A DNA stretch of 64,000 bases from Escherichia coli (GTDB lineage: Bacteria > Pseudomonadota > Gammaproteobacteria > Enterobacterales > Enterobacteriaceae). Positions 5,175-20,509 of this stretch are shown here, one piece after another (position 1 is the first letter of the stretch; each line of letters starts with the position of its first letter). The notes beneath the pieces were generated by a model. That model worked only from the letters and a program-made list of their open reading frames with translations. It was not told the DNA's origin and ran no database searches. The translations under genes and the position numbers were made by a program. The stretch is taken from the NCBI RefSeq assembly GCF_030384885.1, contig NZ_CP128613.1; one strand, given 5' to 3'.

Positions 5175-6269
5175 ATGGAAAAACTGCGGGTAGGAATCGT
5201 TTTTGGTGGTAAATCAGCGGAACATGAAGTGTCTTTGCAATCGGCAAAAAACATTGTCGATGCCATTGATAAAAGTCGCTTCGACGTTGTGCTGCTGGGC
5301 ATTGATAAACAAGGGCAATGGCACGTCAGCGATGCCAACAATTATCTGCTAAATGCAGACGATCCTGCCCATATTGCGTTGCGCCCTTCGGCGACCAGTC
5401 TTGCGCAGGTGCCTGGTAAACATGAGCATCAGCTTATCGACGCACAAAACGGTCAGCCATTGCCGACGGTGGATGTCATTTTCCCGATTGTTCACGGTAC
5501 GCTAGGCGAAGATGGTTCCTTGCAGGGAATGCTGCGGGTCGCCAATTTACCGTTTGTGGGTTCTGATGTTTTGGCGTCAGCGGCCTGTATGGATAAAGAT
5601 GTCACCAAACGTCTGCTACGCGATGCCGGGCTGAACATTGCGCCATTTATTACCCTGACACGCACCAATCGTCAAAACATCAGTTTTGCCGAAGTGAAGT
5701 CAAAACTGGGGTTACCGCTGTTTGTAAAACCCGCTAACCAAGGCTCTTCTGTTGGTGTCAGCAAAGTAACCAGTGAAGAAGAGTACGCAATTGCCGTCGA
5801 TCTGGCGTTCGAGTTCGATCATAAAGTGATCGTTGAGCAAGGGATCAAAGGTCGTGAGATCGAATGCGCGGTTCTGGGCAACGACAATCCGCAAGCCAGT
5901 ACCTGTGGCGAGATCGTACTAACCAGCGATTTCTATGCCTACGACACCAAGTACATTGACGAAGATGGCGCGAAAGTGGTGGTTCCGGCAGCCATTACGC
6001 CTGAAATTAACGATAAGATCCGGGCAATTGCCGTTCAGGCTTATCAAACGTTGGGTTGCGCAGGCATGGCGCGTGTAGACGTGTTTTTAACCCCAGAGAA
6101 CGAAGTGGTAATCAACGAGATCAACACACTGCCAGGCTTCACCAACATCAGTATGTATCCGAAGCTGTGGCAAGCCAGCGGTTTGGGTTACACCGACCTG
6201 ATCACACGTCTGATCGAGTTGGCGCTGGAGCGTCACGCTGCGGATAACGCATTGAAAACCACAATGTAA
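5175..6269 (+). CDS. ddlA: D-alanine--D-alanine ligase A
   Basis: 364 aa [29 protein letters not shown]...; ATP-grasp ligase. Confidence 0.95.
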
Positions 6270-6290
6270 TTTTTAAATGCCCAATAACTG

Positions 6291-6503
6291 TTATTGGGCG
6301 TTTTCAGTTTCTTCATCGCGACGACGAATAATCAGCCCCGCGAGCCAGAAACTAATCACCCACGTCACCAGACCAACGGCATAGGTCTGCCAACCTTTTG
6401 CTTCAAATCCCAGTAACCCCACCACGCCATTAAGAATGAATATCAGGCCAATGGCGAACGCATAGTAGTGCCAGTCACGGCGAATTTTTACAGGCAGACT
6501 CAT
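6291..6503 (-). CDS. yaiZ: Small membrane protein YaiZ
   Basis: ORF 6291-6530; internal start MSLPVKIRRDWHYYAFAIGLIF at 6503; two predicted TM helices; 70 aa. Confidence 0.7.
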   Translation of the reverse strand: MSLPVKIRRDWHYYAFAIGLIFILNGVVGLLGFEAKGWQTYAVGLVTWVISFWLAGLIIRRRDEETENAQ

Positions 6504-6762
6504 GGCAGCTCCGTTAACGAAAAATAACATCTTCGCATAATCGATAACTTACGTCTGTGGGGTAGACAGCATTTCCCGTATCGTTAAAAAATTTAACTTA
6601 AAGTTACCGTTTTGTGACTCGTGACAAATATTCCCGCTTCGGGAATATTCCCAACATCAATTTACCATGATTCTGATATTGACAATCTAAATGACCTGTC
6701 AGACTTGCCATAAGCCGCTGGTATGACACCAGAAGAGAAGTAGATGACTTCCGGAGGTTTTT

Positions 6763-7071
6763 ATGGCTGATTTCACCCTGTCAAAATCGCTGTTTAGCGG
6801 AAAATATCGCAATGCCTCTTCTACGCCTGGCAACATTGCCTATGCGTTGTTTGTGCTGTTTTGCTTTTGGGCTGGGGCGCAATTGCTGAACCTGTTAGTG
6901 CATGCGCCCGGCGTCTATGAGCGTTTAATGCAGGCTCAGGAAACAGGCCGCCCACGGGTGGAAATTGGTTTAGGTGTCGGTACCATTTTCGGGCTGATCC
7001 CATTTTTAATTGGCTGCTTCATTTTTGCAGTGGTGGCGCTATGGCTGCACTGGCGACATCGCCGCCAGTAA
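6763..7071 (+). CDS. yaiY: Inner membrane protein YaiY
   Basis: 102 aa ORF with two hydrophobic segments; conserved position between ddlA/yaiZ and yaiW. Confidence 0.85.
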
Positions 7072-7128
7072 GAGTAGGTTGCCAGATGCGGCCTAAAATG
7101 CCTTATCTGGCCTGGCGTTCCCTCTTGC

Positions 7129-8223
7129 TTACTGTTTCATACAACGCGCCCGCCGTTCGTCTACGCGCTTCGCAAACCAGGCCGTAGTCAGATTGCGGGT
7201 AATTTTCGGGCTTTCCAGTTGGATGCCGGGCAACATTTCGCGGGGTAGTGATCTACCCGTTTTTGCTTCGGCAAGTTGATAAACTTCCTTGTACAGCGCC
7301 GTCTCCTCAAAAGAGAAGCTGTCCCCTTTCTCTAACTGACGGCGAATTTCGCTGTCGCTCATCCCCAGTTTGCTTGCCAGTTTGCGCGTTGCCAGCTCTG
7401 TTTTCCCTGGTTCTTTACTGTCGTAACGAATTAAATCACCGTCCAGCGCCAGCTTTATGCCAGTGGCCTTACTGACCGCGTTCTGAAAAGCGGCATTACG
7501 GCTGGCGTACCAGCCAGCGTTAAAATCGGCAAAACGGTATATCGGCGCGCTATAACTGGCGGGATAATTCAGTAAATGGTAAGTACCGAACCACAATCCG
7601 CCGCGGCGACTGAAGACTTCCTGACGGACTGTACCGTCCATTTTCCACGGATACCCTTTGGTATGCTGTTCGGCAAACGCAATGCTGACCTGCATCGGTC
7701 CACCGGTACGTACCGGATTAAGCGAACCAAACAGCGTCTGCCCCATTGGCACCATGCTGATCAAATCGTCAAAAATCGCGCTTAATTGCTTTTCTGTACG
7801 CACAGAATCTAACCGCTCACTATAACTTTTGCCGTTTGGCGATTTGATTTTTAGCGCGGTATGAACCAGAAAAGCAGGGATGTGCATCCGTTCGGCACGA
7901 CGGTCAATCTCTTGCCATGCTATCTTGCTTAAGCCCGGAACGGGCGGATCTGCCTGATAATTTGACTCCTGCTGCGCCACCGCCAGCACCGAGCAGACAT
8001 TTTCCAGCGTCGGTGCCAGCCCCTGACTTTCAAACGTGGTGGCAAGATCTTTCGCCCAGGCATCGCGGTCTTTCACGCTCGCGGGCATCTTCTGCCGCAC
8101 GACGCTCGCCACATCTATCGCTTTTTCGCCCTTTTTCAACGGTTGCGGAGCCTGACTACTACACCCTGCTAAAACCAGAACCGCCAACAACGAAAGCGAA
8201 GATAGATGATTGACGCGCGACAT
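7129..8223 (-). CDS. yaiW: Lipoprotein YaiW
   Basis: 364 aa ORF; lipobox LAGCSS after signal peptide; 12 bp downstream of sbmA, implying an sbmA-yaiW operon. Confidence 0.9.
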   Translation of the reverse strand: MSRVNHLSSLSLLAVLVLAGCSSQAPQPLKKGEKAIDVASVVRQKMPASVKDRDAWAKDLATTFESQGLAPTLENVCSVLAVAQQESNYQADPPVPGLSKIAWQEIDRRAERMHIPAFLVHTALKIKSPNGKSYSERLDSVRTEKQLSAIFDDLISMVPMGQTLFGSLNPVRTGGPMQVSIAFAEQHTKGYPWKMDGTVRQEVFSRRGGLWFGTYHLLNYPASYSAPIYRFADFNAGWYASRNAAFQNAVSKATGIKLALDGDLIRYDSKEPGKTELATRKLASKLGMSDSEIRRQLEKGDSFSFEETALYKEVYQLAEAKTGRSLPREMLPGIQLESPKITRNLTTAWFAKRVDERRARCMKQ

Positions 8224-8235
8224 TACTTCTCCTTT

Positions 8236-9456
8236 TTAACTCAAGGTATGGGTTACTTCCTGAATTTTGTCACCATCCAGCTCATGTTCAAAGCTGCGCA
8301 GACGTTTGTAGATAGACATCAACTCAACCAGCGTGGTCCATGAGTTAATCAGGTACTGAAAAGCACCGCGAACCTGACCAAAAACGTTGGTAATCTGCGT
8401 CATCAGGCCGAGCGTAATCGTACCGGCAACAATCGACGGAAACAGCAAGAACAAACCGAAAACGTTATCGACCTGCAAATAGAGAATGCGGGCGATGTTG
8501 AAATACATATAGTGAAAATAGAGGCGGAAATAGTTTTTCCGCACGGCGCTAAACAGCTCGCGTACCGTAGGCGGCGTCGCGCGCGATGCATCGTCTTCAC
8601 CATAAACCAACTCTTTACGGTAGGCAGCCTCTACACGCTGATTTTTAAACTCCAGTCCCGGCAGTTTGATCCCTACCACTGCCAGCAATCCGGTCCCCAT
8701 CAACGACCATACGATAGCAGCAATCACCAGACCATACGGAATATGCCCGACAATCGGCAGCTCCGGCACATGCGCAGAGAGCGTTACCAGTACCGGCAGG
8801 AAGGCGATCAACGTCATGATAGCGTTGATAAAACTGACGCCCATATTCTCAAGCGTTGAAGCAAAACGCATGGTGTCTTCCTGCACACGCTGGGCGGCAC
8901 CTTCGATATGACGCAGTTGTTGCCAGTTCGCCATGTAATATTCGTTCATCGCCGTACGCCAGCGGAACACGTAGTGACTGACAAAGAAGTTGTTCAGCAC
9001 ACTGATCACCACCGCGATCAGCGCAATCCCCAGAAAGACGCCCACTTCGCGGTAAAATTGTTCGATAGTGACTTTATGCGGCGAACTTAGCGCAGTTTGA
9101 ATCAGATCATAAAACGGCGCATACCAGGCGTTGACGGCAACTCCAACTTCCACCAAAAACCAGGTGACGAAGATAATCAACGCAGTACCGAGTATTGACC
9201 AGTATTGCCAACGATGCGGGCTATAAATAAACCAGAACAGTGCAAAAAGCCCTACGCAAACAATGTAGTAAGCGTAAAAAATCAGGAAATCTAACGACCA
9301 GAAACGCGCGGCGCTAATTGGGATCTGCCCGGAAGCTCCGGTGATGCGCGCCACCCAATCCCCCCCACCGGCTTGCCAGAAGATAACGGCAATCAATGCC
9401 CAAACAAAGGCCGAGAGAAAAAACGTTCCCGGCTTTGGGAAAAAAGACTTAAACAT
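8236..9456 (-). CDS. sbmA: Peptide antibiotic/microcin transporter SbmA
   Basis: ORF 8236-9462; start [24 protein letters not shown]; polytopic membrane protein, about 406 aa. Confidence 0.95.
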
Positions 9457-9807
9457 ATGCACTCCTGCTAACTTCTTATCGTTTTAACAACTGCTGTGTA
9501 TTAACCGCATGACCGCTACAAAGAATCAGCCAAATGAAACTGCCCATTGTGACCCATAGCAAGGCGCATAGTTCGCCAGCCTGACCATAAGAATTGTTTC
9601 GACGGATTTCACAAACCAAAGATTATTTACATTAGCGGATTAACACGCGCAGGATCACAAATGCAGGCATTGGTGAGCAGGAAAAAGATCGTGTTTACGC
9701 GCCGTTACGTTTTTAACACTATTATTGCACTAATTCGCCCTTTGCAATCCATCAATGAGTAGTATAAATACGCTCAGTTACCTTCATTCAATCTATGGAC
9801 ACCACCG

Positions 9808-10965
9808 TTGAAACGTAGTCTGCTTTTTTCTGCCGTGCTTTGTGCGGCGTTATTGACCCCCGTCCATGCGGCGCAGCCGATCACTGAACCGGAGTTCGCC
9901 TCTGATATTGTCGATCGTTATGCCGATCATATTTTTTATGGCAGTGGTGCCACGGGGATGGCGCTGGTTGTTATCGACGGTAACCAGCGCGTCTTTCGCA
10001 GTTATGGCGAAACGCGCCCGGGTAATAACGTTCGCCCGCAGCTGGATTCGGTCGTGCGTATTGCTTCGCTCACCAAGCTAATGACCAGTGAGTTGCTGGT
10101 GAAATTGCTCGACCAGGGGACCGTGAAGTTAAACGATCCGCTAAGTAAATATGCTCCACCAGGCGCACGCGTGCCGACTTACAATGGCACGCCTATTACC
10201 CTGGTGAATCTGGCAACCCATACCAGTGCCCTGCCCCGTGAACAGCCGGGAGGTGCGGCACATCGCCCAGTGTTTGTCTGGCCAACGCGCGAGCAACGCT
10301 GGAAATACCTTTCTACGGCGAAGCTGAAAGCCGCGCCAGGCAGTCAGGCGGCATACTCTAACCTTGCGTTCGACCTGCTGGCAGATGCACTGGCGAATGC
10401 TTCTGGCAAGCCTTATACCCAGTTGTTTGAAGAGCAGATTACCCGTCCGTTGGGGATGAAAGACACGACCTATACTCCATCGCCGGACCAGTGCCGCCGT
10501 TTAATGGTTGCAGAGCGCGGTGCCAGTCCATGCAATAACACGCTGGCGGCAATTGGCAGCGGCGGAGTCTATTCCACGCCTGGCGATATGATGCGCTGGA
10601 TGCAGCAGTATTTGTCATCTGATTTTTATCAGCGCAGTAACCAGGCAGATCGCATGCAGACGTTGATTTATCAGCGAGCGCAGTTTACAAAAGTGATTGG
10701 CATGGATGTCCCCGGCAAAGCGGATGCGCTTGGTTTAGGCTGGGTATATATGGCCCCGAAAGAGGGTCGTCCAGGGATTATTCAGAAGACAGGTGGTGGT
10801 GGCGGTTTCATTACCTATATGGCGATGATCCCGCAGAAGAATATTGGCGCATTTGTGGTGGTCACTCGTTCGCCATTGACGCGCTTTAAAAATATGAGCG
10901 ATGGCATCAATGACCTGGTGACCGAACTGAGCGGGAATAAACCGTTGGTCATCCCCGCGTCCTGA
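9808..10965 (+). CDS. ampH: Penicillin-binding protein AmpH (class C beta-lactamase fold)
   Basis: 385 aa; signal peptide; SxxK motif (ASLTK); the codon at 9808 is TTG. Confidence 0.9.
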   Translation: MKRSLLFSAVLCAALLTPVHAAQPITEPEFASDIVDRYADHIFYGSGATGMALVVIDGNQRVFRSYGETRPGNNVRPQLDSVVRIASLTKLMTSELLVKLLDQGTVKLNDPLSKYAPPGARVPTYNGTPITLVNLATHTSALPREQPGGAAHRPVFVWPTREQRWKYLSTAKLKAAPGSQAAYSNLAFDLLADALANASGKPYTQLFEEQITRPLGMKDTTYTPSPDQCRRLMVAERGASPCNNTLAAIGSGGVYSTPGDMMRWMQQYLSSDFYQRSNQADRMQTLIYQRAQFTKVIGMDVPGKADALGLGWVYMAPKEGRPGIIQKTGGGGGFITYMAMIPQKNIGAFVVVTRSPLTRFKNMSDGINDLVTELSGNKPLVIPAS

Positions 10966-11652
<687 letters not shown>

Positions 11653-11653
11653 T

Positions 11654-14623
<2,970 letters not shown>

Positions 14624-15148
14624 TTGTCATCCCTCCTCAGGGACGTAATAAGTTGATCCATCAATTATCAATGCATAGAAAACATCTTATGTTTCGCGTT
14701 GACGATTATGCGGCGTTATAGAGGAATGGTTCAATTATTCTTTCCCCGAAGTCCGGTTACGGACATATATAAAGCACGGAGAAACACACAAAGAAAAAAT
14801 TGATGAAATCCTAATTTTTCAACAAGTTAACAGGAGTTCCATTTTTAAAGCATATGCATTTAAAATATCAAACACACAAACCAGACAAATAATCTATCAA
14901 TAACCAATGAACTTTAAATCATTCTGTTTTTGATAACGCAATCAAATCCGTAAAAACAATAATCTATAGCTATAAATAAAAATTAAAAATATTTTCAATG
15001 AATATAAATTTATTGCTATTTCTATTACAAAGATGTCCTGACCTCTCATTCATTCTCTTCTTGTCAACATCGCGACAACTTTCGTAAAACATCCCCACCC
15101 TGCTTCAGGTATACTATGCCCCTCGATTCCACAAACATCAGGCAGACC

Positions 15149-16123
15149 ATGACAGATTTAATCCAACGCCCTCGTCGCCTGCGCAAATCTCCTGCGCTGC
15201 GCGCTATGTTTGAAGAGACAACACTTAGCCTTAACGACCTGGTGTTGCCGATCTTTGTTGAAGAAGAAATTGACGACTACAAAGCCGTTGAAGCCATGCC
15301 AGGCGTGATGCGCATTCCAGAGAAACATCTGGCACGCGAAATTGAACGCATCGCCAACGCCGGTATTCGTTCCGTGATGACTTTCGGCATCTCTCACCAT
15401 ACCGATGAAACCGGCAGCGATGCCTGGCGGGAAGATGGTCTGGTGGCGCGTATGTCGCGCATCTGCAAGCAGACCGTGCCAGAAATGATCGTTATGTCAG
15501 ACACCTGCTTCTGTGAATACACATCTCACGGTCACTGCGGTGTGCTGTGCGAGCATGGCGTGGACAACGACGCGACCCTGGAAAATTTAGGCAAGCAGGC
15601 CGTGGTTGCAGCTGCTGCAGGTGCAGACTTCATCGCCCCTTCCGCCGCAATGGATGGCCAGGTACAAGCGATTCGCCAGGCGCTGGACGCTGCGGGCTTT
15701 AAAGATACGGCGATCATGTCGTATTCGACCAAGTTCGCCTCTTCCTTTTATGGTCCGTTCCGTGAAGCTGCCGGAAGCGCATTAAAAGGCGACCGCAAAA
15801 GTTATCAGATGAACCCAATGAACCGTCGCGAGGCGATTCGTGAGTCACTGCTGGATGAAGCCCAGGGCGCAGACTGCCTGATGGTTAAACCAGCCGGAGC
15901 GTACCTCGACATCGTGCGTGAGCTGCGTGAGCGTACTGAATTGCCGATTGGTGCGTATCAGGTGAGCGGTGAGTACGCGATGATTAAGTTCGCCGCGCTG
16001 GCGGGTGCTATAGATGAAGAGAAAGTCGTGCTCGAAAGCTTAGGTTCAATTAAGCGTGCGGGTGCGGATCTGATTTTCAGCTACTTTGCGCTGGATCTGG
16101 CTGAGAAGAAGATTCTGCGTTAA
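15149..16123 (+). CDS. hemB: Porphobilinogen synthase (delta-aminolevulinic acid dehydratase)
   Basis: ORF 15116-16123; start [23 protein letters not shown] at 15149; 324 aa. Confidence 0.95.
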
Positions 16124-16162
16124 TGATCATTATGCCGGGTTATCCAACCCGGCATTTCCCCT

Positions 16163-17014
16163 TTACCCCGCCCGATAAAACGGAATATCCCCAAGAATCG
16201 TCGCCCGATGCATAATCCGCCGCTGTGGCAGGTAATCCGCATTGGCATAGTGCTGAGTCACTCGGTTATCCCAAATCGCAATATCATTCGGTTGCCAGCG
16301 CCAGCGCACCTGAAACTCCGGTTTAGTGATATGGGCAAACAAAAAACCTAACAAGGCTTCGCTCTCTTTCTCGCTGACGTCAACAATTCGCGTAGTAAAG
16401 CCTTCGTTCACAAACAGCGCCTGTTTACCGGTCACCGGATGCGTTCGCACAACCGGATGGAGTAACGGTGGATTTTTCGCGACCGCCTCGTGCCAGCGTT
16501 GATGCTCCTCCTCGGTTTTGCGGTACTTGTATTCCGGGAACGATTTACGGAAATCATGCTCCGCACATAACCCGCTCAATAGTTGACGGAAGGGAACTGA
16601 GAGCGCCTCATAGGCCGCAATACCGCTGCTCCATAGCGTATCGCCGCCGGTCGAGGGTAACTCTTTCGCCGCCAGAATCGCCCCTGCGGGTGGCGTTTCA
16701 ATAAATGTCACATCGGTGTGCCAGTTATCGTTATCCGGCGGATTATCGTTATGAGTATCCAGTACGATAATCTCGTCAACCCCTTCGGCATGAGGGTAAA
16801 CAGGATGAATATGCAGTTCGCCAAAACGTTGGGCCAGCGCGCGTTGCTGCTGCGGCGTAATGGCCTGTTCACGCAGAAACACCACCTGATGACGCAGTAC
16901 CGCATGGTAAAGCTGTTCAAACTGGTTATCACTTAACGGGCGCGTCAGGTCGACACCCGTAATTTGTGCGCCAATATACGGCCCCAGCGGGGTAATGCTC
17001 AGACGTTCACTCAT
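16163..17014 (-). CDS. tauD: Taurine dioxygenase (alpha-ketoglutarate dependent)
   Basis: 283 aa; overlaps the tauC stop by 4 bp. Confidence 0.95.
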
Positions 17015-17838
17015 TGTACTTCTCCATGCCAGGGCGTCAGGCGGCGCTGTAACGCGCGCAGACCCAGTTCTAAAAGAAAGGCGATACTCGCAATCACCGC
17101 GATCCCCGCCAGCACCACGTCAGTCGCGAGAAATTCACCCGCTGACTGGACCATAAAACCCAAACCGCGCGTCGCGGCAATCAACTCCGCCGCCACCAGG
17201 GTAGACCAGCCCACACCCAGACCAATGCGTAATCCGGTGAGAATTTCCGGCAGCGCACCGGGCAAAATAACAAACCACAGTACCTGTGTGCGGCTGGCCC
17301 CCAGCGACTGAGCGGCACGAATGCGAACCTGCTGCGCGCTTTTCACCCCCGCCAGCGCCGACATCGCCACAGGTGCAAAAATCGCTAAATAGATCAGTAA
17401 GATCTTCGAGGTTTCACCAATACCAAACCAGATCACCATCAGCGGCAAATACGCCAGCGGCGGCACCGGGCGATACAATTCAATTATCGGATCCAGAATG
17501 CCGCGCACCGTCGGGCTTAGTCCCATGGCGATCCCAACCGGAATGCCGATCAACACCGCCGCAAGTAGCGCCAGCACAATGCGCGTCAGGCTGGCTGCCA
17601 GATGTTGCCACAGGGTGGCGTCCATAAATCCTTGAGGTCCGGCAATAGTGAGCAGTTTTGCCAGTACCTGTTGCGGCGGCGGCAGAAACAGCGGGCTAAT
17701 CAGTTGCAGGGCCGCCACCGCCCACCATACAGTGAGTAAAACCGCTAACGTGCCAATGCTTAAGGTCACCTGACGCGAGAGCGGCCAGCGCCATTTCAGC
17801 CGATGCGAATGCAGTTTTTCATTAATGAGCACACTCAT
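17011..17838 (-). CDS. tauC: Taurine ABC transporter permease
   Basis: 275 aa polytopic protein; overlaps the tauB stop. Confidence 0.95.
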
Positions 17839-19879: not shown

Positions 19880-20509
19880 ATGATTAGGGTTGTGCTGGTG
19901 GATGACCATGTGGTGGTGCGCTCTGGCTTCGCACAATTACTCTCTCTGGAAGACGATCTGGAGGTCATTGGTCAGTACAGTTGTGCCGCGCAGGCATGGT
20001 CGGCATTAACTCATAATGACGTTAATGTTGCCGTCATTGATATCGCCATGCCGGACGAAAATGGCCTCAGTCTGCTTAAGCGTCTGCGTGCACAAAAACC
20101 GCAATTCCGCGCCATTATTCTTAGCATTTATGACACGCCAACCTTTGTACAAAGCGCTCTGGATGCTGGTGCCAGCGGCTATTTGACCAAACGCTGTGGG
20201 CCGGAAGAGTTAGTGCAGGCGGTGCGCTCGGTCGGGATGGGCGGGCATTATCTCTGCGCCGATGCAATTCGGGCTTTACGCGGCGGCGAGCAACCCGCCC
20301 AGGCGCTGGAAATTCTCACCCCACGAGAACGTGAAGTGTTTGATTTATTAGTCAAAGGCGACAGTGTAAAAGAGATCGCCTTTAAGCTCGAACTCAGCCA
20401 TAAAACGGTACATGTACATCGCGCCAACGTGCTGGGAAAACTGAACTGTCATAGCACCATTGAGCTGGTGCATTTTGCACTCAATCACCATCTGCTGGCG
20501 GGGCATTAA
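19880..20509 (+). CDS. NarL/FixJ-family response regulator, UhpA-like
   Basis: 209 aa; receiver domain (VVLVDDH, acceptor Asp in VIDIAMPD) plus LuxR-type HTH; close in architecture to UhpA. Confidence 0.85.
   Translation: MIRVVLVDDHVVVRSGFAQLLSLEDDLEVIGQYSCAAQAWSALTHNDVNVAVIDIAMPDENGLSLLKRLRAQKPQFRAIILSIYDTPTFVQSALDAGASGYLTKRCGPEELVQAVRSVGMGGHYLCADAIRALRGGEQPAQALEILTPREREVFDLLVKGDSVKEIAFKLELSHKTVHVHRANVLGKLNCHSTIELVHFALNHHLLAGH

Follow-up and report, generated by a model that had tools for sequence, protein, structure and literature searches.

The TTG initiation codon of Escherichia coli ampH and its conservation among Enterobacteriaceae

Does ampH of Escherichia coli begin at a TTG codon, and does that rare start codon carry any meaning beyond the gene call itself? 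The question arises in the window, a 64,000-nucleotide stretch of E. coli contig NZ_CP128613.1 (assembly GCF_030384885.1), in which TTG at positions 9808 to 9810 is the first codon of a 385-codon open reading frame on the plus strand (9808 to 10965, including the stop codon). Upstream, this frame is closed by a TAG stop codon at 9760 to 9762, and the window sequence contains no in-frame ATG, GTG, or TTG between that stop and the TTG at 9808. The next candidates in the frame lie downstream, namely, GTG at 9835 (codon 10), TTG at 9853 (codon 16), and ATG at 9958 (codon 51). The nearest upstream ATG (9795 to 9797) is offset by −13 from the TTG and is therefore out of frame. An initial annotation had made both of these points, that ampH starts with TTG at 9808 and that the ATG at 9795 lies in another frame, and both were borne out: the TTG is the only start after the in-frame TAG that yields the N terminus MKRSLLFSAVLCAALLTPVHA, after which the mature part of the protein continues with AQPITEPEF. 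The assignment of 9808 to 9810 (+) as the UUG initiation codon draws on this open reading frame logic, on the K-12 and PGAP annotations, on comparison across 80 species, and on published initiation mapping by INRI-seq, each of which is described below.

The identity of the product is relevant to the position of its N terminus. The NCBIfam equivalog model for AmpH (NF007943) matched the translated frame at 696.8 bits, compared with a cutoff of 266, and residues 1 to 378 aligned with profile positions 1 to 380 of 380, so that the family model begins at the N terminus set by the TTG start. The active-site motifs are all present, with S-x-x-K as SLTK87, Y-x-N as YSN183, and K-T-G as KTG327. In contrast, true class C beta-lactamase models scored far under their cutoffs (91 versus 415), which indicates that the protein is AmpH and not AmpC. 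Judged from sequence, AmpH belongs to the serine beta-lactamase-like/class C penicillin-binding proteins, and the coding sequence at 9808 to 10965 (+) was accordingly listed, from the NF007943 match and the motifs, as that of the peptidoglycan DD-carboxypeptidase/DD-endopeptidase AmpH. The exact 385-amino-acid protein is found under the name AmpH on 978 public contigs. For the K-12 protein, DD-carboxypeptidase/endopeptidase activity and penicillin binding are attributed to Henderson 1997 and Gonzalez-Leiza 2011 as cited in PMC4916385, and the same article cites ribosome-profiling data that put AmpH output at ~400 to 700 molecules per generation.

The N terminus given by the TTG start has the form of an export signal. 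The first 21 residues (9808 to 9870, +) constitute a predicted Sec signal peptide, made up of MKR, the core SLLFSAVLCAALLTP, and VHA, followed by AQP. Two positive charges lie in its n-region, MKR; the hydrophobic core, 15 residues long, averages 2.0 on the Kyte-Doolittle scale; and V-H-A conforms to the −3/−1 rule. The signal peptide is probably cleaved after VHA, releasing a periplasmic enzyme. The ortholog structure in the PDB (3OZH/3RJU) aligns with AmpH from residue 31 onward only.

We compared the window with the curated K-12 genome and with the closest strain, Z0117EC0005. In NC_000913.3, ampH (b0376, NP_414910.1) occupies 395130 to 396287 (−) in the annotation, where the T of the homologous TTG is base 396287; the comparison with the curated K-12 start that the initial annotation had proposed as a check thus returned the identical codon. 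Shared between K-12 and the window, in addition to the TTG, are the preceding 13 nucleotides (ATGGACACCACCG), the length of 385 amino acids, and the neighboring genes sbmA and iprA, and the two genes differ only allelically; in the signal peptide, for instance, the window has CAALLTPVHA and the K-12 DNA encodes CAASLTSVHA. PGAP places the ampH start at the same TTG in Z0117EC0005, which is 100% identical over a 401-nucleotide query (window positions 9650 to 10050). The gene order sbmA-ampH-iprA is the same in the window, K-12, and Z0117EC0005, with sbmA as the divergent neighbor (8236 to 9462, −) and iprA as the convergent one (10966 to 11589 or 11634, −). Among the 52 annotated coding sequences of the neighborhood, the start codons are ATG in 46, GTG in 4, ATA in 1, and TTG in 1, the sole TTG being that of ampH.

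Several features of the neighboring genes were observed alongside these comparisons. The PGAP start of iprA in Z0117EC0005 (L083 positions 20412 to 20414) is ATA, a single-nucleotide polymorphism that changes the K-12 ATG, and the corresponding start in the window (11587 to 11589, minus strand) is ATG. A longer, 222-amino-acid iprA frame in the window, with its ATG at 11634, begins within ATGCCCGTCAAGGATTTGACGGGCAT, a perfect palindrome that resembles a terminator for the autotransporter gene upstream. This latter gene is an intact 982-amino-acid open reading frame in the window (11675 to 14623, −) and is the counterpart of K-12 yaiT, a pseudogene in two pieces. Within the part encoding its passenger domain, ~1.6 kb (12943 to 14541) had no strong BLAST match in the closest strain, and the passenger region is therefore variable. 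Between hemB and the autotransporter gene, Z0117EC0005 carries an IS1-flanked resistance island of ~11.7 kb (L083 positions 5598 to 17340), with contents that include a TnAs3 transposase, intI1, aadA1, and tet(A)/tetR; at the corresponding point in the window (~14700), the island is absent and the autotransporter gene directly adjoins hemB.

Initiation at the homologous K-12 codon has been mapped experimentally. INRI-seq (Hör et al. 2022, PMC9825163) applies retapamulin ribosome profiling in a cell-free system to a synthetic E. coli transcriptome. In Table S2 of that study, the start of ampH (b0376) at 396287 (−) has 41.9, 43.6, 29.7, 44.4, and 43.5 CPM, that is, signal in 5 of 5 replicates, and is flagged "Peak identified: TRUE" (PMC9825163). 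The method accepts a site when the peak of 3′ ends lies 12 to 18 nucleotides inside the coding sequence (PMC9825163), a criterion under which the ampH peak can come from neither the ATG at −13 nor the GTG at +27. No ampH site appears in Table S3, the full listing of alternative sites, and the oligonucleotide used spanned −30 to about +150 (PMC9825163). [quoted passage not shown] We found no N-terminal protein evidence for the AmpH start, the supplements of the TRAINSPOTTER N-terminomics work having no ampH entry. With a curated K-12 start and published cell-free initiation mapping, the TTG start of ampH is already known.

These data bear directly on the proposal that the real ampH start is GTG 9835, TTG 9853, or ATG 9958 and that TTG 9808 is a mere annotation convention. 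All three codons are in frame, and the anti-Shine-Dalgarno match of ATG 9958 (−4.5 kcal/mol) is better than that of TTG 9808. However, a start at codon 10 or 16 would drop the MKR n-region and a start at codon 51 the entire signal peptide of a periplasmic enzyme, codon 10 varies, most genera having GCG, ACA, or another nonstart codon in place of the GTG, and the NF007943 alignment begins at residue 1. Moreover, the INRI-seq peak is at the TTG, with zero alternative sites on the oligonucleotide from −30 to ~+150 (PMC9825163). The initial annotation had named initiation at an ATG or GTG farther downstream as the finding to set against its call, and this was not what the mapping recorded. We rejected the downstream starts, which are largely refuted by the loss of the signal peptide, the INRI-seq data, and the variation at codon 10, and we regard this proposal as extremely improbable. 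The gene call at 9808 is confirmed as correct, and automatic callers should leave the ampH start there.

We then considered how far the TTG itself is conserved. A scan of species-representative genomes yielded 80 ampH loci in Enterobacteriaceae with 82 to 98% protein identity, from genera that include Escherichia, Citrobacter, Salmonella, Kluyvera, Klebsiella, Raoultella, Enterobacter, Leclercia, Kosakonia, Atlantibacter, and Franconibacter, among others. Codon 1 is TTG at all 80 loci. For comparison, ampH in the window has nine further TTG codons, all internal and encoding leucine: these positions retain TTG in only 0 to 33 of the 80 loci, and in only 6 to 15 where at least 76 of the loci keep the leucine. 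Across the 80 species, only 17 of the 385 codons are invariant; Met and Trp codons account for 14 of them, and the remaining three are TTG1, AAA2, and ACC93. The second codon, AAA (Lys; 9811 to 9813, +), is thus also the same in 80 of 80 species. These comparisons indicate that the ampH start TTG is constrained at the nucleotide level, as a start codon would be and unlike a leucine codon. Within E. coli, 5185 complete records contain the exact 45 nucleotides spanning −13 to +32, and versions of this segment with ATG or GTG swapped in had 0 exact matches among the complete E. coli records. Since the exact region recurs in 5185 E. coli records and the codon is TTG in 80 of 80 species, TTG 9808 is neither a chance feature nor a sequencing error. 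With its start conserved to this extent, ampH offers a clean natural case of a non-AUG start that has been maintained and is a suitable gene for a start-codon swap study of dosage setting for a redundant peptidoglycan hydrolase.

In Kluyvera, Pseudocitrobacter, Klebsiella, Leclercia, Silvania, and some Enterobacter species, an in-frame ATG is found 9 nucleotides upstream of the invariant TTG, and initiation there would give N termini of the type MPPLKRS or MLSLKRC. Both forms of AmpH exist in public collections, the named RefSeq (WP_) records being of the TTG form and the ATG form appearing only in unnamed gene calls.

The sequence preceding the TTG contains a probable but weak ribosome-binding element. 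Around the start, 75 aligned unique sequences are invariant at GGA (−11 to −9), at TTGAAAC, and at a few downstream positions. The GGA (9797 to 9799, +), 8 nucleotides upstream of the UUG, probably acts as a Shine-Dalgarno element of low strength; of 81 sequences, 79 carry TGGA at −12 or −13, and one other carries it at −11. We call the element weak because its duplex with the anti-Shine-Dalgarno sequence amounts to only −3.0 kcal/mol, a value that was equaled or beaten at 38% of random window positions.

Further upstream, the alignment suggests a sigma-70 promoter at 9741 to 9768 (+), with TTTGCA (9741 to 9746) as a putative −35 element, a 16-nucleotide spacer, and TATAAA (9763 to 9768) as a putative −10 element. 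Conservation over 79 unique upstream sequences is at least 95% for TAGTATAAAT and at least 80% for most of TTTGCA, one column of which falls lower. A scan for the sigma-70 consensus upstream of ampH returned no plus-strand promoter; the scanner required a T at position 6 of the −10 hexamer, which is an A here, and so missed TTTGCA-N16-TATAAA. If the conserved element is a promoter, transcription would start near 9775 and give a leader of ~33 nucleotides. The TAG at 9760, which sits within the putative −10 region, and any far-upstream in-frame starts would then be outside the mRNA. In some species, in-frame ATG, GTG, or TTG codons occur at −48 to −228; these were rejected as candidate starts, as they lie upstream of the promoter-like TAGTATAAAT and are probably not in the mRNA. 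An Rfam search of the sbmA-ampH intergenic region and leader (9300 to 10000) identified no known RNA family.

Two readings would give this leader a regulatory function. According to the first, the out-of-frame ATG at 9795 opens a 7-codon mini-ORF, ATGGACACCACCGTTGAAACGTAG (MDTTVET*; 9795 to 9818, +), that overlaps the UUG, is translated, and controls ampH by translational coupling or occlusion. Of 81 sequences, 77 contain the motif ATGGA; most species have the end of the mini-ORF at +11, and in 19 species, a TGA stop overlaps the TTG (cgTTGAaa) in the classic geometry of coupling, all within an AU/pyrimidine-rich, unstructured leader. The ATG, however, is not fixed in its position: its offset varies by lineage (−12, −13, or −14), the frame it opens is 5, 7, or >30 codons long, and four sequences have no ATG there at all (two have GTGGA, one TTGGA, and one ACGGA). 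Nor does it have an upstream Shine-Dalgarno sequence of its own (+0.9 kcal/mol), and INRI-seq Table S3 contains no alternative ampH site (PMC9825163). The invariant portion of the motif is GGA and not ATG, which fits a Shine-Dalgarno role for the UUG; with GGA fixed and the ATG and its frame variable, we read ATGGA as the Shine-Dalgarno region and not as a conserved upstream ORF. The mini-ORF is probably not functional, and control of ampH through its translation appears very unlikely.

According to the second, a leader hairpin pairing UUCAAU (9787 to 9792) with GUUGAA (9807 to 9812) sequesters the UUG and regulates initiation. This hairpin does appear in minimum free energy structures, and in a 200-nucleotide fold, the probability that the UUG is unpaired is only 0.04. 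Shuffled controls, however, do as well: the local fold (−30 to +15) has an energy of −4.0 kcal/mol, compared with −4.46 ± 2.0 for shuffles (z = +0.23), and 109 of 200 shuffles folded equally well. RNAalifold on 75 unique orthologous regions returned 0 pairs, 9300 to 10000 had no Rfam match, and initiation was readily detected by INRI-seq (PMC9825163). Given the shuffle control (z = +0.23) and the zero consensus pairs in 75 orthologous sequences, the UUG-sequestering hairpin was rejected, and we give it almost no credence. 

One further element of the leader has been reported in connection with MazF. In the MazF regulon of Sauert et al. 2016 (Table 1, PMC5001579), ampH is listed with a cleaved ACA 9 nucleotides from the start, and the position matches an ACA triplet at 9799 to 9801 (+) in the window. 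Cutting by MazF at this triplet would strip the GGA Shine-Dalgarno core from the ampH mRNA. The ACA is present in Escherichia, in most Citrobacter and Salmonella, and in a few others (Trabulsiella and Intestinirhabdus) and is absent from the remaining genera.

Taken together, the reading frame, the annotations, the initiation mapping, and the conservation make it very probable that ampH is translated from the UUG at 9808, with fMet at a weak site and with modest synthesis of a secreted enzyme as the likely outcome. Of this reading, where the start lies and how well it is conserved are established. The sequence of events would be as follows. Initiator fMet-tRNA would decode the UUG as methionine, producing a pre-AmpH that begins with MKRSLLFSAVLCAALLTPVHA, and removal of the Sec-type signal peptide, probably after VHA, would then yield the periplasmic AmpH DD-carboxypeptidase/endopeptidase. 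The initiation region is intrinsically weak, with a UUG and only the GGA core 8 nucleotides upstream as a Shine-Dalgarno sequence; the short (~33-nucleotide), pyrimidine/AU-rich, unstructured leader and the AAA second codon would act as counterweights. A weak UUG and Shine-Dalgarno core combined with an unstructured leader and AAA would probably set a modest, steady rate of AmpH synthesis, and it is plausible that weak initiation limits AmpH output. The initial annotation had remarked that rare start codons usually lower initiation; as a general statement not specific to ampH, this agrees with the literature, in which AUG, GUG, and UUG initiate at 10 to 100% of AUG and UUG is the start codon of ~3% of E. 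coli genes (bioRxiv 10.1101/063800).

Whether the invariant UUG, the GGA 8 nucleotides upstream, and the AAA codon form a selected regulatory device, with the weak start itself as the regulatory element, is a separate question. What the invariance records is constraint on the codon; it does not by itself make weak initiation the property under selection, and we consider such a device unlikely. In that case, AmpH synthesis could be sensitive to conditions that affect initiation fidelity (IF3 level, cold, or stress), synthesis in E. coli could respond to MazF cleavage at the ACA through removal of the Shine-Dalgarno core, and the ampH TTG would be more than a neutral frozen feature. Otherwise, beyond annotation hygiene, the TTG start of ampH matters little.

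The textbook case of a weak start codon as a regulatory element is infC, which has an AUU start and is autoregulated by IF3. In its conserved non-AUG start, ampH is like infC, and the resemblance is one of analogy and not of membership: UUG is far less discriminated against than AUU, and to our knowledge, neither a feedback loop nor a link to IF3 exists for ampH. Among the ordinary UUG-initiated genes of E. coli, ampH has the same minor canonical codon, read by fMet-tRNA, and is mechanistically in no way distinctive; the one notable point that sets it apart from this class is the invariance of its TTG across 80 species.
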